A stretch of DNA of 64,000 nt from Caulobacteraceae bacterium (GTDB taxonomy: Bacteria; Pseudomonadota; Alphaproteobacteria; Caulobacterales; Caulobacteraceae). Under the pieces are notes generated by a model. It had not been told where the DNA came from. It searched no databases and saw only the letters and a program-made list of their open reading frames with translations. The translations under genes were made by a program, and so were the position numbers. Of the stretch, positions 2,256-48,645 are shown one piece after another; position 1 is the first letter of the stretch; every line of letters starts with the position of its first letter. The stretch covers positions 14,961-78,960 of the forward strand of contig CANJXI010000006.1 of NCBI GenBank assembly GCA_947478785.1. Direction: 5' to 3'.

Positions 2256-2855
2256 CTAGGATTTCGGGAATCCGCCTTCGAGAATCATGTCCGCCAGGGG
2301 ATTGCGGCCGCTGGGAATTTCCCGGGCGGCCAGCTTCTCGGGCAAGGTGTCGGCGGGGGCGGGCCGGCCTATGGCCAGCGCGGCCTCGACCCTGTGGTGG
2401 TCGGGGACATGCAGGTCGACGCGCGCCTTCTCCACGTCGAATCCCATCATGCCGTGGGCGGCCCAGCCGAGCTTGTGCGCCTGCAGCGCCAGGCTCATCC
2501 ACGCCGCCCCTGAATCGTAGGAATGGCTATGGGCGGGGACGGGGTCGCCGCCGGGAATCTCCAGGATCGTCTTGGAGACCGCCACCGCCAGCACAGAGGC
2601 GTTCTGGGCCCATAACTGGTTGCCGGGGATCAGCAGGTTGAACAGGGTCGGCCAGTGCGCCGTGTCGCGCCGGGCGTAGACAAACCGCCAGGGCTGGGCG
2701 TTGAAGCAGGAAGGCGCCCAACGCGCCGCCTCGAAGATGCTCATCAGGGTCTCGTCGGGGATCGCCTCTGCGCCGAAGGCCCTGGGCGACCAGCGATCCA
2801 GGAACTGTCGGTCGATGGCGTGGTCGGCGGTGCGACCGTTCCCGGTGAGCGCCAT
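2256..2855 (-). CDS. Nitroreductase family protein
   Basis: RWSPRAF, AARWAPSCFNAQPWRF motifs; start trimmed to ATG 2855. Confidence 0.92.
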   Translation of the reverse strand: MALTGNGRTADHAIDRQFLDRWSPRAFGAEAIPDETLMSIFEAARWAPSCFNAQPWRFVYARRDTAHWPTLFNLLIPGNQLWAQNASVLAVAVSKTILEIPGGDPVPAHSHSYDSGAAWMSLALQAHKLGWAAHGMMGFDVEKARVDLHVPDHHRVEAALAIGRPAPADTLPEKLAAREIPSGRNPLADMILEGGFPKS

Positions 2856-2941
2856 CAGCGCGCGGCCGGGTAGGCGACGAGGCCAAGGCTCTCGGGGTGA
2901 TGCATGGTGCGCTTCCGTGATCTGCGGGCGATATCGATAGC

Positions 2942-4663
2942 CTAGGTTCCCGGGGCGGCGAAGACCGAGATTTGCCGGCCCCGATAGAGTGGCCGCCACG
3001 CCGCCCCGACAATCGGATGGTCACCCTGCGCCAGCACGGTGGCGTAGGGAGCGGCCTGCCAGCCGAGGACATGTTCGCCCGGCGCCGCCAACAGCATGTG
3101 GGGATGCCCCGCGAACCGCAGGAAGACGATCCTGTCGATGTTGGGGTCGTCGGTGATGGCCAGGACGGGTCCCTGGCGCGCGGCCAGGATCGCCTGCGCC
3201 CGTGAAAGGTCGTGGGCGAGGTCGCGTCGGCCCGGGCCCGCCGCGTCGACCCAGAGCCGGTCGGCCGCCGTGGACAGAAGCGCGAGCGCCAGGACATAGG
3301 CCTGCCAGGCCCGCGCCATCGGCGCCCTGGCCAGCATCGCCAGCCCCACGGCGAAGGTGGCCGCGACCGCCAGCGCGCGATAGGGCAGGGGCGCGGCCAG
3401 GGCGAAGCGTCGCGGGTCAGACCGGAAGAAGGCCGTCAGCGCCGCCGAATCCCAGGGAAACAGCACCACGCCGGCCCGAAAGACCGCCAGCAGCCCCGCC
3501 AGGCCGGCCAGCACGACGGCGCAGGCCGCCACCGGCCGGCGCCAGCCCCGCGCCAGCCCCACGAACGGCGCGGCGGTCAGCCACAGCAACGGCGCGAAGA
3601 ACTCCACGTAGCGGCCCAGCAGCCGCCCCTGCTCGCTCTCATAGGCGCTGGCCCTGAAGGTGAACGCCGCGACCATGGCCAGTGTCGCCACGAGACTGAG
3701 CAGCACCAGCAGGAAGGCGCGTTCCGGTCCCTCGGTCGGCGGGCTGGCGCGCGCGCGCCAGCGGGAGAAACGAGCGCCAAGCCCGGCGAGGATCGGAACC
3801 CCGGCCAGCACCGCCATCAGGCTCGCCAGGCCCGCAAGCGTGGTCAGGGTCAGGCCGATGGCGTCTCGCGCCGGCCGCCCGGCGAGCAGGCCGGAATACA
3901 AGGGGGCCTCGAAGAACACCAGCGGTCCGGGCATCGGCTGGTGCGCAAGGGTCTGGATAAGCCAGCCGGCGCCGAAATAGGTGGGCAGCAGGACGCCCAG
4001 CCGAGCGGCGGCGAGGCCGATCCTCTGCTCGCCAAGCATCGCCTCGATGAGGGGAAGGGCGGCCAGGGCGGCCGCCATCGCGAGCCCCTGCGGCTTGATC
4101 AGCGTCAGCACCGCCGCGAGCACGCCAGCCAGCAACGCGTGGACGACCGGCCGGCGAGCGTAGAGCCGGTCCGTGGCGAAGACCACCAGCCCAAGCCCGC
4201 CCACGTACCAGCCCTCGGGCAGGGCGCTGAGCACGAAGCGCCAGTTGGGGAACAGTAGCGCCAGGAGCAGCACGCTCCAGGCCGCGCCGGCCGACAGGCC
4301 TCGACGCACGCAGGCCCAGGTCAGACCAATCCCGCCGAGATAGGCCGCGAGGCTGGCGGCGCGGATCCAGGGCAGGCCCGGTCCGGCGAGGCCGGCCACC
4401 GCCCGCAGGACCGCGAAATAGGCCGAGTTGGTCACCGAGCCTACGCCCGGATCCAGGGTCGGATCGGCCGCCAGCGCCGCGCCATGCAGGGCGCGGGCGA
4501 GGTAGGTTCCCTCGTCGAAGGCGTACAGGGGCAGGGGATCGACCAGCCGCCCGGCGTAGAACACCAGCACGGGCGCCGTGGCCAGGATCACGGCCGCGCT
4601 GAAGATCCATCCAAGGAGGGCGCGGCGCGGGCCGCCCGGTTGGGGCTGGTCGTTGGCGTTCAT
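2942..4663 (-). CDS. Polytopic membrane protein, possible GT-C (ArnT/PMT-like) glycosyltransferase
   Basis: Many hydrophobic helices; acidic FDEGTYL motif after the first TM; start ATG 4663. Confidence 0.6.
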   Translation of the reverse strand: MNANDQPQPGGPRRALLGWIFSAAVILATAPVLVFYAGRLVDPLPLYAFDEGTYLARALHGAALAADPTLDPGVGSVTNSAYFAVLRAVAGLAGPGLPWIRAASLAAYLGGIGLTWACVRRGLSAGAAWSVLLLALLFPNWRFVLSALPEGWYVGGLGLVVFATDRLYARRPVVHALLAGVLAAVLTLIKPQGLAMAAALAALPLIEAMLGEQRIGLAAARLGVLLPTYFGAGWLIQTLAHQPMPGPLVFFEAPLYSGLLAGRPARDAIGLTLTTLAGLASLMAVLAGVPILAGLGARFSRWRARASPPTEGPERAFLLVLLSLVATLAMVAAFTFRASAYESEQGRLLGRYVEFFAPLLWLTAAPFVGLARGWRRPVAACAVVLAGLAGLLAVFRAGVVLFPWDSAALTAFFRSDPRRFALAAPLPYRALAVAATFAVGLAMLARAPMARAWQAYVLALALLSTAADRLWVDAAGPGRRDLAHDLSRAQAILAARQGPVLAITDDPNIDRIVFLRFAGHPHMLLAAPGEHVLGWQAAPYATVLAQGDHPIVGAAWRPLYRGRQISVFAAPGT

Positions 4664-4694
4664 CCGCCAGCGTCGCCGCTGCATGAGGGTCGGG

Positions 4695-5255
4695 TCAACG
4701 GGAGATGCGGATGTCGCGGACCCAGCCGCCGGCCGCGCCATTGTCCGTCGCCATCACGTCGGCGGGGTCTTCGGCGTCCATCAGCTTCAGTAGACGCGCC
4801 CGCGCGCGGTTCACCCGGCTCTTGATGGTGCCGAGCGCGCAGCCGCAGATCTCGGCGGCCTCCTCGTAGGAAAGCCCGGCCGCGCCCACCAGGATCAGGG
4901 CTTCGCGGTGTTGGTCGGGCAGCTTGCGCAGCGCCGCCCGGAAGGCGCGCATCGCCACGCTCCAGTCCTGGGTCGCGGGCGTCGACAGCGCGCCAGCATA
5001 CTCACCGGCCTCGTCGCGCACCTCGCGGCGGCGGCGCAATATCTGACTGTAGTAGGTGTTCCGCAGGATCGTGAACATCCAGGCCCGCAGATTGGTGCCC
5101 GGCTCGAACCTGTCGCGGTGGCTCAACGCCTTGATCAAGGTGTCCTGGACCAGGTCGTCGGCGTCGGCGCCGTTGTGGCAGAGCGACCAGGCGAAAGCCC
5201 GCAACGCCGGGATCAGGCCGACGATATCGTCGCGCCAACTGGACGTCGCGGACAT
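4695..5255 (-). CDS. ECF sigma factor, EcfG/SigT/SigU general-stress type
   Basis: IPALRAFAWSL..ADDLVQDTLIKA..GTNLRAWMFTILRN (region 2) and LSYEEAAEICGCALGTIKSRVNRAR (region 4); ATG 5255 preceded by GAGG. Confidence 0.93.
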   Translation of the reverse strand: MSATSSWRDDIVGLIPALRAFAWSLCHNGADADDLVQDTLIKALSHRDRFEPGTNLRAWMFTILRNTYYSQILRRRREVRDEAGEYAGALSTPATQDWSVAMRAFRAALRKLPDQHREALILVGAAGLSYEEAAEICGCALGTIKSRVNRARARLLKLMDAEDPADVMATDNGAAGGWVRDIRISR

Positions 5256-5313
5256 CGCATCCTCAATCGTCCCTTGCCTGGGACAGTTGAAAGGCTCCTC
5301 CAGAGGCCGGGAA

Positions 5314-46208: not shown

Positions 46209-46237
46209 GGAACTGCCCTAGGGCCGAAACTGCTTCC

Positions 46238-46672
46238 TCAAATGCTTCGGTAAAGTTCCCAAATCGCCTTGACCAACGGCTCCTTATTCCATCCCACAGT
46301 TCGAGATGCGGCCTTCGCGACTACGGAGGACGCTCGAAGCTGGCCCCAAGGATTTACAGCGAGAATTGGTTTCCCATAACCCACAGCTCCATCAATCTCT
46401 TTTCGAATCCATTTGCTGTAACTGGCATACATTCCGGTCGGGATAACGATGACATGGCTCATTGCAATCTGTTTGTAGATTGCCGCCTGAAGTGCTCCAT
46501 CTGTGGGAGCGGAGTGAATGGGGCTGCTGGACGGAACGGAATAGTCCCGCAAGTCGAGCGAGGTTGACCCGCTGCTCCATTTTTCTTGAAATATCCATTT
46601 TTCAAGTGTGTCGTAATGGTTCGAATACCACCAAGAATGGCTGATGAAGACATGTACCTGGGTGGTGCCCAT
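46238..46672 (-). CDS. TIR-like domain protein (DUF1863/MTH538, Thoeris ThsB-like)
   Basis: VFISHSW.Y, DYSVP, GMYASYSKWIRKEI (Glu at the catalytic position), KPILAVNPWG, VGWN; RBS GGAGAAGGGA; AT-rich. Confidence 0.88.
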   Translation of the reverse strand: MGTTQVHVFISHSWWYSNHYDTLEKWIFQEKWSSGSTSLDLRDYSVPSSSPIHSAPTDGALQAAIYKQIAMSHVIVIPTGMYASYSKWIRKEIDGAVGYGKPILAVNPWGQLRASSVVAKAASRTVGWNKEPLVKAIWELYRSI

Positions 46673-46959
46673 TCAGTGTCCCTTCTCCGTCGTGCCGCTT
46701 CAGTGCGCACTTGCTCTTAGATAAGCGCCCTACTGGATTTGAAGTTTTCAGGTTATGCCATTTTTGCAGCCTACGGTATTCACGCTCCGAATGAATGTCG
46801 ACAAAAGTTTGGGATGGTTTCTAGGTATAGAACTGATCTGGGGCGGCGGTGGTCGAGGTATTGTGAGTGTGGGGACTGGCTTTGCTACCTCTCAAGAGGT
46901 TTTGTGGCGGCGCTCGAGGCTAGGCTGACTGCCAGGGAATTGCGGGTCACAGGGGGTTG

Positions 46960-47466
46960 ATGACTATGCCCAACTTGAAAAAATTCACAGACGAGGAACT
47001 CTTCAGGACAAATCCGGATGAGTACTCCGATAAATATGTCGAGCATCTTCTTGAGCAATACAAAATATATGTGCAATCCCACGAAAAAATTAGCGAGCGC
47101 AGAGAAGGTGCAAACAAATTTTTCTTGGCGCTCAACAGCGCCGTCGTGGCCGGAATATCTGCTCTATGGGGAACGAGTTCCACTAATCAATTTATAATGT
47201 CATGTACGGGGGCTGCGGCTATCTCAATTTGTGTTTACTGGTATCGCGCAATTAGGTCGTATGACAATCTAAATACCGGAAAATTCAAAGTAATACATGC
47301 AATTGAACGCCGTTTGCCTCTAGCATTATATGAAGCAGAATGGATTGCATTGGGTAGGGGCAATGATCCTGAATTATATGTTCCGGTGAGTCATCTAGAA
47401 AGAGTTATACCGATCGCTTTCGGCGTTCTATATTTGATAATTATTGTTGCGAAGCTGTTCTCCTAG
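46960..47466 (+). CDS. Small integral membrane protein (RipA-like oligomeric membrane protein family, tentative)
   Basis: LLEQYKIYV..ISERREGANKFFLALNS, TM pair, W..AIRSY..LNTGKFKVIHAIE..LP, YEAEW, C-terminal TM; about 38% GC in the counted line 47221-47280; start 46957/46960/46966. Confidence 0.8.
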   Translation: MTMPNLKKFTDEELFRTNPDEYSDKYVEHLLEQYKIYVQSHEKISERREGANKFFLALNSAVVAGISALWGTSSTNQFIMSCTGAAAISICVYWYRAIRSYDNLNTGKFKVIHAIERRLPLALYEAEWIALGRGNDPELYVPVSHLERVIPIAFGVLYLIIIVAKLFS

Positions 47467-47760: not shown

Positions 47761-48645
47761 TTACATCTGTACGTCCATGATCACCTCGGTCGCGTGGCGC
47801 TGGCCGTCCTCAGTGTAGGCCACCTCGAAGCGGTTGATGCCGCGCGCGAAGAACTTGGCCAGCGTCTTCGCGCTGACCTCGGCTACGGCGGTAGCGTCGC
47901 CGTCCTTCAACGTCACGTCCTTCACGCTAAGCGGGATGGCCTCGATGGTCTTGGAGTTCACGCTGTCGATGACCAGCGCCCTGGGCAGCGCGCCGTTCTT
48001 GGCGACCTTGATCCGGAAGGTGTCGTGCTTGGGCTGGGCCACGAAGTCGTCCAGCATGAAGTCGGCGGTGAAGCTCGGGCCGCCCAGGCCCGTCAGGTTG
48101 ACCCGGCGCGGCGCCGCCGCCTCCTGGCCCGCCAACCGCAGGTCGTTGACCGTCGAGACGTCGAACACCGTGCCGGGTGGTAGCTCGGCATTTCCGCCGG
48201 GCACGAACAGCACCGGCCAGAGCAGCAGCAGGCCCACTGTCCAGACCACCACCTTGTGGCCCGCGCCTTCCTTGTTGTAGCCGCCGGACAGCATGACGTT
48301 CTGGCCGTCGGTGGCGCGTGTCTCCACGCCGTCGATCGCCACCTTGCCCTCGGTGCCGGCCATGTTCCGGCGCGAGACCTTGCTGACCCGGCAGGTGGCT
48401 GGCGTGCCCGCCTTGATGAAGACGACGCCGCGCTCTTCCACGTCGCGCCACACCCGACAGCGGACCATGGTGCCCACGTCGTCGCCGCCGCGCGCGCTGG
48501 AGACGTTCTCGTCCAGTGACAGGTACATCCGCGTGCCGGCGTTCAACCCCGGCCCGCCCTCGGCCGCCTGCGCGCTCAGAGCCGGGGCCAAGCTGAGCTG
48601 GACGACCCCAAGCAGCGCAAGCGCTGCCGATCCGAAACGATTCAT
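47761..48645 (-). CDS. Secreted hypothetical protein with TrbI/VirB10-like beta domain
   Basis: Signal peptide; AGTRMYLSLDENVSS..G..V..RV.RDV...GVVFIKAGTPA.C.V pattern; internal hydrophobic hairpin. Confidence 0.75.
   Translation of the reverse strand: MNRFGSAALALLGVVQLSLAPALSAQAAEGGPGLNAGTRMYLSLDENVSSARGGDDVGTMVRCRVWRDVEERGVVFIKAGTPATCRVSKVSRRNMAGTEGKVAIDGVETRATDGQNVMLSGGYNKEGAGHKVVVWTVGLLLLWPVLFVPGGNAELPPGTVFDVSTVNDLRLAGQEAAAPRRVNLTGLGGPSFTADFMLDDFVAQPKHDTFRIKVAKNGALPRALVIDSVNSKTIEAIPLSVKDVTLKDGDATAVAEVSAKTLAKFFARGINRFEVAYTEDGQRHATEVIMDVQM

Follow-up and report, generated by a model that had tools for sequence, protein, structure and literature searches.

A divergent TIR-8xMP gene pair in a low-GC islet of a Caulobacteraceae genome as a putative Thoeris-like module

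The DNA analysed here, referred to as the window, is a stretch of 64,000 nt from a Caulobacteraceae bacterium (assembly GCA_947478785.1, contig CANJXI010000006.1, positions 14,961 to 78,960 of the forward strand). Directly behind parC it contains an islet of low guanine-plus-cytosine (GC) content with two divergently transcribed genes, one for a ThsB-like TIR protein of 144 amino acids (aa) and one for a small membrane protein of the Pfam family PF24838 (8xMP). We consider it likely that the islet came by horizontal transfer and that its two genes form a Thoeris-like module that acts by abortive infection through a membrane effector. By sequence, the pair is a member of the '3TM' class of Thoeris systems that was already predicted by Yirmiya et al. 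(bioRxiv 10.64898/2025.12.03.692087, December 2025).

A low-GC islet with two intact genes follows parC

The islet and its parts have the following positions in the window:

46209..47466, no strand: low-GC islet, 47.9% GC versus ~70% in the flanks, between the parC stop codon and a native-looking high-GC gene
46238..46672, minus strand: TIR gene, thsB-like, 144 aa, with Glu92 in KWIRKEI (SKWIRKEI); PF08937
46673..46965, no strand: divergent intergenic spacer, 52.9% GC, with two putative outward promoters
46966..47466, plus strand: PF24838 8xMP gene, 166 aa, predicted Thoeris-type membrane effector; a TTG start at 46957 would give 169 aa

In the flanking 10-kb segments the GC content is 70.0% and 69.8%, and single 60-nt lines inside the islet go down to 37-38%. 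When all segments of 1258 nt were scanned over the 64 kb, values below 58% were reached only in segments overlapping the islet. The fall begins no more than ~30 nt past the parC stop (46208), and the GC content recovers where the membrane gene ends (47466), which confirms the abrupt change described in the first-pass annotation, a model's reading of the letters. At third codon positions (GC3) the values are 96% for parC, 54% for the TIR gene and 42% for the membrane gene. Both open reading frames (ORFs) are intact, no further credible gene lies inside the islet, and the content of two genes, among them a 144-aa TIR gene with an intact glutamate, is as had been claimed. The membrane gene had been given a length of ~168 aa; it is present, and its product has 166 aa when translation starts at the ATG at 46966, as in public gene calls (P0001), or 169 aa from the TTG.

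The two genes are separated by 284-293 bp. The sequence of the islet together with both junctions was found with 100% identity in contigs from other data sets (SRR6787039, ERR3761214, ERZ28612976). The divergent arrangement is therefore real and no artefact of assembly.

The TIR protein belongs to the ThsB clade

The TIR protein matches PF08937 (ThsB_TIR) with an E value of 9.6e-15 and 55.3 bits (Pfam cut-off 21.2), and phrog_6988 with 4e-23. The ThsB models of PADLOC are matched weakly, at 1e-6. More than 1,000 relatives were found, and the best 119 listed are 63-78% identical to the window protein and all carry PF08937. Glu92 is invariant in the 122 of 122 aligned rows of the subfamily (window protein included), and it aligns with the catalytic glutamate of validated ThsBs of types I, IV, VII and VIII. 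The protein shares 61% identity with a validated ThsB of type VII, that of Pseudohongiella nitratireducens SCS-111, and 67% with one TIR listed under '3TM' in Table S1 of Yirmiya et al. It consists of the bare 144-aa domain, without a sensor or oligomerisation module. A Shine-Dalgarno-like sequence, GGAGAAGGG, is located upstream of the gene and ends 8 nt short of the ATG. The designation as a ThsB-like TIR is borne out by these data, which place the protein in the ThsB clade with its catalytic glutamate. In PADLOC, the TIR protein matches ThsB models and the membrane protein has no match.

The membrane protein is a member of PF24838

The membrane protein matches PF24838, the 'Octameric membrane protein family (8xMP)', with an E value of 3.3e-38 and 131 bits (cut-off 30), and the match spans positions 1-135 of the 136 positions of the model. 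PF24838 is present in all 120 homologues listed for the protein. Searches of PADLOC and NCBIfam gave no match, and PHROG gave nothing meaningful. With a profile built from 57 8xMP homologues (A1), 3,910 representatives of clusters at 50% identity were found at E ≤ 1e-3, and 592 at E ≤ 1e-30; 8xMP is a mid-sized family. A purine-rich AGGGGG is present 11 nt ahead of the ATG at 46966.

An AlphaFold2 monomer model (pLDDT 83, pTM 0.71) is all-helical, with helices at 22-67, 74-114, 120-128 and 143-165. Three hydrophobic stretches of membrane length lie at about 51-68, 76-96 and 147-165 (numbering of the 166-aa protein) and represent the putative transmembrane (TM) helices. From the distribution of lysine and arginine, the N-terminal helix and the segment between TM2 and TM3 are predicted to be cytoplasmic. 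The residues that are invariant in the family are mainly found in these two parts (Y32, Y35, S43, R46, N50, Y99, N103, K106, E114, E125 and others), and the predicted cytoplasmic parts hold invariant arginine, lysine, glutamate, tyrosine and tryptophan. W92 is another invariant residue.

The first-pass annotation had proposed a small oligomeric, 'RipA-like' membrane partner. A small membrane protein it is; an oligomer is suggested by the name of the Pfam family, for whose origin we found no paper, and the label 'RipA-like' could not be verified in any library or paper searched. Among the family representatives, one protein (P0363) carries a C-terminal NMT1/periplasmic-binding-like domain, and in two others (P0311 and P0347) the N-terminus is extended by ~220 aa of hydrophobic sequence with several helices.

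TIR and 8xMP genes are linked across genomes

Loci were gathered from metagenomes with the 8xMP profile (80 loci), from species-representative genomes (6 loci) and, in the form of several contigs, by exact protein look-up; 6 viral contigs of IMG/VR and 2 complete genomes reached through the TIR protein were added. All ORFs of the collected loci were given scores against a ThsB TIR panel. For the count of linkage, redundant 8xMP loci were set aside and a minimum of 400 nt of DNA upstream of the gene was required, which left 66 loci.

A TIR ORF is located directly upstream on the same strand in 59 of these 66 loci, with a gap of at most 20 nt and frequent overlaps, and one further locus has a convergent TIR gene, which brings adjacency to 60/66. 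The order TIR then 8xMP was also seen in all six IMG/VR contigs, and in the two complete genomes, which belong to the same class and order as the window, a TIR gene (product 54-58% identical) is followed by a gene for a distant 8xMP (33% identical). One protein of 299 aa (P0380) is a single-chain fusion of both families with the TIR at its N-terminus. Adjacency holds over at least four TIR clades and is kept in co-directional, convergent (L020, L104/L105) and divergent layouts. The last of these was found in 1 of ~85 loci, the window itself. Co-occurrence of the two families across genomes, on which the earlier interpretation depended, is thus strong, and the layout, described there as unusual, is exceptional.

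In comparison to their closest homologues, both window genes show saturated proportions of synonymous differences (pS 0.7-0.93) and low proportions of non-synonymous differences (pN 0.15-0.27). These values demonstrate long-term purifying selection on both genes.

The pair corresponds to the predicted '3TM' Thoeris class

Yirmiya et al. scanned defence islands for TIR operons, choosing TIR clusters by their enrichment beside defence genes, and listed 29 putative Thoeris types; types V-XI were validated. The label '3TM' belongs to the 'additional putative effectors' of their Fig. 1C and stands in at least 100 rows of Table S1. Four TIR sequences from such rows are exact substrings of TIR ORFs in our loci, namely ga0172380_10000146131 in L045, ga0209542_10000011137 in L088, ga0247841_100009458 in L084 and ga0116182_10008216 in L101. 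All four ORFs lie directly upstream of PF24838 genes. Because of these exact matches, the '3TM' effector can be equated with the PF24838 family.

The novelty that the first-pass annotation had implied for the pair is not upheld: it matches an effector class listed as a putative Thoeris type in 2025, and novelty is lower than assumed, since that type was already catalogued. In our literature search, no paper of later date turned up in which a TIR-8xMP type is named or tested or a further Thoeris type is named.

Partners are exchanged between TIR clades

The closest relative of the window TIR among the collected loci (L019, 78% identical) is paired with an 8xMP that is merely 34% identical to that of the window. 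The closest 8xMPs, from L007 and L018, are 68-69% identical to the window protein and are partnered by two different TIRs; the TIR of L018 belongs to the clade of the window TIR and is 69% identical to it. Members of this clade with readable neighbours are mostly followed by a gene for a protein of ~294 aa with matches to SLATT_3, DUF4231 and SLATT_1. Examples are L012-L014 and an island of Providencia (L016/L017) with two such pairs in tandem.

Some of these loci have further features. The Providencia island (2523-5313, found in a Providencia stuartii contig and a Logan contig) shows the tandem TIR-SLATT pairs, which are type VII-like, followed by a gene for a PIN_12 protein, and it also holds BrxA, an integrase, PsiA and restriction genes. 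In Shewanella sediminis HAW-EB3 (L015, 4001-7320) a TIR from the clade of the window protein, with 65% identity to it, occurs without a SLATT or 8xMP partner. Its gene is followed by those for an alpha/beta-hydrolase-like protein of 315 aa and for a protein with TPR-S and Trypsin_2 matches, and a further TIR_2 gene is located downstream.

The islet was inserted at a variable site

The genome of the window (3.95 Mb in 147 contigs) has one PF24838 gene, and the DNA of the islet is absent from 18 of 18 genomes of the same genus. In one of these (G016) a gap of ~30 bp between parC and aspS represents the empty site, and in another (G009) 1.5 kb with a gene for a serine-hydrolase-like protein separates the two genes. 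The nearest congener (G015; L032, G015:C34, 5868-7792) has another low-GC islet directly after parC, which encodes two proteins. One has 473 aa and an HD domain (Pfam HD and HD_assoc_2; PADLOC dGTPase 7e-10); the other has 168 aa and a weak DarG-like match. In G018 (L033, G018:C11, 5072-6886) a low-GC ORF (53-59%) of up to 604 aa without Pfam or PADLOC match is found ~0.8 kb from the parC stop. Since the content that follows parC differs among the congeners, this site is a variable hotspot in the genus, and the islet of G015 suggests that the 3' flank of parC is a hotspot for defence genes.

The sequence of the islet points to a recent, horizontally acquired insertion. No integrase, tRNA or meaningful flanking repeat was found to mark it, and the repeat matches were short and at chance level. 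Seen from the host genome, the islet is a recent gain of an ordinary kind, at a site that varies.

TIR-8xMP pairs elsewhere were found within a type I restriction-modification (RM) locus (L002) and on phage-like contigs (L124-L129). In L007 (3618-6269) the pair is followed by a gene for a 567-aa KAP/AAA_22 NTPase (PADLOC PDC-S49, 1.4e-23), and serine recombinases flank the set. In a metagenome-assembled genome of Chitinophagaceae (L001, 3950-6997) an 8xMP gene without a detected TIR neighbour is followed by a gene for an 833-aa DUF4062/NB-ARC/TPR STAND protein (PADLOC PDC-S60, 2.4e-33). The defence-like or mobile surroundings of L002, L007 and L001 would support a role of such pairs in defence. 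As separate observations, the L007 set may be a three-gene mobile variant, and the STAND protein of L001 may be an alternative partner for an 8xMP effector.

Between the islet and aspS the window encodes a 294-aa protein (47761-48645, minus strand) with a signal-peptide-like N-terminus, host-like GC content and no Pfam or PADLOC match. Its sole match among the congeners is in G016, at a distant site of the chromosome.

A putative mechanism and its alternatives

In the reading that we prefer, the ThsB-type TIR would sense infection, and its Glu92 site would turn NAD+ into a signal derived from ADP-ribose (ADPR). This signal would then bind to the cytoplasmic side of the 8xMP, where the N-terminal helix and the segment from TM2 to TM3 form a conserved face with basic and aromatic residues; the binding sites would probably lie at the interfaces of a ring-shaped homo-oligomer. 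The oligomer would open or disrupt the inner membrane, and growth would stop or the cell would die before phages are released. Canonical cyclic ADPR (cADPR) is the leading, if tentative, candidate for the signal, by analogy to the validated type VII relative of the TIR. We do not rate it higher because the TIR cluster of Yirmiya et al. that contains relatives of the window protein also has type IV and type VIII members, and because the partners are shuffled. The earlier interpretation as a minimal Thoeris-like system is supported in substance, with defence as a predicted function.

Several observations weigh against this reading. The '3TM' type was predicted by Yirmiya et al. and stands outside the 30 operons that they tested. 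About 9% of the 8xMP loci (6/66) have no detectable TIR neighbour, and the window islet is surrounded by housekeeping genes and not by a defence island. Searches for structural relatives of the 8xMP, solved or predicted, found none, with best E values of 0.38 (PDB, by sequence), ~1 (PDB, by fold) and ~0.8 (BFVD). In the Pfam and PADLOC scans the protein showed no recognisable ligand-binding domain and no PADLOC match, and here our results agree with the first-pass annotation, which had proposed an effector of this kind. No sigma-70 consensus was found in the islet or the spacer, a result that says little for an alphaproteobacterium, and the divergent layout could have uncoupled the expression of the two genes. 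In L007 the 8xMP shares 68% identity with that of the window, and the TIR next to it has no BLASTP similarity to the window TIR. Because such near-identical 8xMPs pair with unrelated TIR clades, the signal cannot be read from the TIR clade, and it is possible that a product common to TIRs, or direct contact, triggers the 8xMP.

The exchange of partners also bears on the roles of the two proteins. The 8xMP could act as an all-purpose executioner at the membrane, one that plugs into different TIR systems without being tuned to a single cADPR isomer and is triggered by a common TIR product or by contact with the TIR at the membrane. Activation of this kind is suggested because near-identical 8xMPs serve dissimilar TIRs and because a natural TIR-8xMP fusion exists. 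We regard it as rather unlikely; if true, Thoeris would have a mode of action that needs no specific second messenger, and the divergent layout would permit separate regulation of the two parts in the window.

The roles may even be reversed, with the TIR as an NADase effector that depletes NAD+ and the 8xMP in the membrane as its sensor, anchor or regulator, which would switch it on through direct contact. The trigger could be, for example, injection of phage DNA or envelope stress, and no diffusible signal would be involved. Many bacterial TIRs are NADase effectors, as stated by Yirmiya et al. (bioRxiv 10.64898/2025.12.03.692087), and the pairing of 68%-identical 8xMPs with unrelated TIRs is easier to understand if no clade-specific ligand is needed; the covalent fusion and the lack of a known ligand-binding domain in the 8xMP are in agreement with contact as well. 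However, a TIR that is 61% identical to the window protein makes cADPR only upon infection and works with a separate effector, and the window TIR, as a bare domain, has no module of its own for sensing or oligomerisation. Moreover, the same clade swaps SLATT and 8xMP partners, a pattern expected of interchangeable receivers of a signal, and the charged and aromatic residues of the cytoplasmic parts of the 8xMP are strongly conserved. We consider activation of the TIR by contact to be unlikely.

The layout of the genes raises the question of expression. Separate promoters are needed, because both genes are transcribed divergently from a unique spacer of 0.29 kb, and we infer that this spacer bears two outward promoters. 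No homologue of the spacer was found in the related loci, and a scan of the islet for terminator consensus sequences gave nothing useful. These results, the lack of a promoter-like site, the orientation that is unique among ~85 loci and the different GC3 of the two genes (54% versus 42%) would fit a decaying or silent remnant, in which the operon was disrupted by inversion of the TIR gene and the two genes have lost their co-expression or function. Against this view, both ORFs have full length and keep all invariant residues, Shine-Dalgarno-like sequences precede both genes, and the very low GC content in relation to the host points to recent arrival and not to long neglect. The arrangement is also identical in assemblies of three other data sets, and a remnant appears doubtful to us. 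A function unrelated to phages, as an addiction (toxin-antitoxin-like) cassette or as an NAD-linked pair for stress or membrane signalling, spread in the manner of selfish DNA, would suit the housekeeping surroundings, the mobile and patchy distribution and a TIR-8xMP type without demonstrated defence phenotype, but is improbable in view of the anti-phage roles shown experimentally for the TIR clade, of related loci that occur on phage-like contigs or next to RM, STAND and PDC genes, and of the selection of TIR clusters enriched near defence genes by Yirmiya et al.

Significance of the TIR-8xMP pair

Thoeris-type TIR signalling is among the links that connect the innate immunity of bacteria with that of eukaryotes. 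The '3TM' class of TIR-8xMP pairs is widespread, as seen from the 3,910 cluster representatives of its membrane protein and from its presence on phage-like contigs. Our analysis ties the anonymous label '3TM' to a defined Pfam family, quantifies the linkage of the two families, and reveals that effectors and TIR clades are shuffled. The wider interest comes from this comparison and not from the locus alone: it is the identity of '3TM' with PF24838, the fusion protein, and the near-identical effectors that occur with unrelated TIRs. The window copy stands out by its divergent genes and by lying in a minimal, cleanly bounded islet at a hotspot site. As a natural cassette of 1.26 kb with clean boundaries and an empty site for comparison, it is a convenient test object. 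It could address which ADPR isomer, if any, opens the 166-aa membrane protein, how so small a protein binds a ligand, and whether the two genes need to be co-transcribed.

Comparison with known systems

The islet genes include no SIR2-SLOG, Macro-TM or caspase-like effector, as known from types I, II and IV, and the flanks hold parC and a secreted protein without Pfam match. The first-pass annotation had noted the absence of ThsA, and this is confirmed, as genes for SIR2, SLOG, Macro or caspase domains are missing. A three-gene set of the kind Rst_2TM_1TM_TIR was considered and rejected, as the islet has two genes, the partner of the TIR has three TM helices and the membrane protein has no match in PADLOC. 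PycTM of the Pycsar/Pucsar systems (pJV1-spdB3 family) is similar in kind, being a small effector with three TM helices in a defence system based on nucleotide signalling. The window differs from it by the lack of a cyclase gene nearby, the missing PADLOC match and another signal generator. The '3TM' of the Pucsar preprint was likewise rejected as the same thing: it is a separate family, pJV1-spdB3/PycTM.

In type II (TIR and Macro-TM ThsC, with His-ADPR), a signal made by the TIR is likewise thought to trigger a membrane-disrupting effector. ThsC, however, has a Macro domain, which the much smaller window effector does not have. Type V consists of ThsB and ThsF (DUF2270), uses 3'cADPR and was validated by Yirmiya et al. 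(bioRxiv 10.64898/2025.12.03.692087). ThsF is small, has three TM helices and was modelled as a ring-shaped homo-oligomer with ligand pockets between protomers, a concept that the window effector would share. The latter shows no match to PF10028 (DUF2270) at E ≤ 1, and its TIR is of another clade.

Type VII comprises ThsB and the SLATT effector ThsH. All three validated TIRs of this type made canonical cADPR only upon infection, and cADPR was toxic to cells bearing the system (bioRxiv 10.64898/2025.12.03.692087). It appears to have the TIR clade in common with the window (61% identity to the Pseudohongiella ThsB), and both consist of two genes, one of them for a membrane effector; relatives of the window TIR at 63-85% identity adjoin SLATT_3/DUF4231 genes, as in type VII. 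The effectors differ, that of type VII being a SLATT protein of ~294 aa and that of the window a PF24838 protein of ~166 aa with three TM helices. Homology between 8xMP and SLATT (ThsH) was rejected, as no SLATT or DUF4231 match was found in Pfam at E ≤ 1 and hhalign gave a probability of 1%.

The closest counterpart is the '3TM' type itself, which is made up of the same two families and has an effector with three TM helices, as in the window. Yirmiya et al. gave this class without Pfam identity, structure, signal or phenotype. The catalogued and sampled '3TM' loci are co-directional two-gene operons with often overlapping genes, whereas the window pair does not form such an operon and is transcribed divergently from either side of a 0.29-kb spacer.

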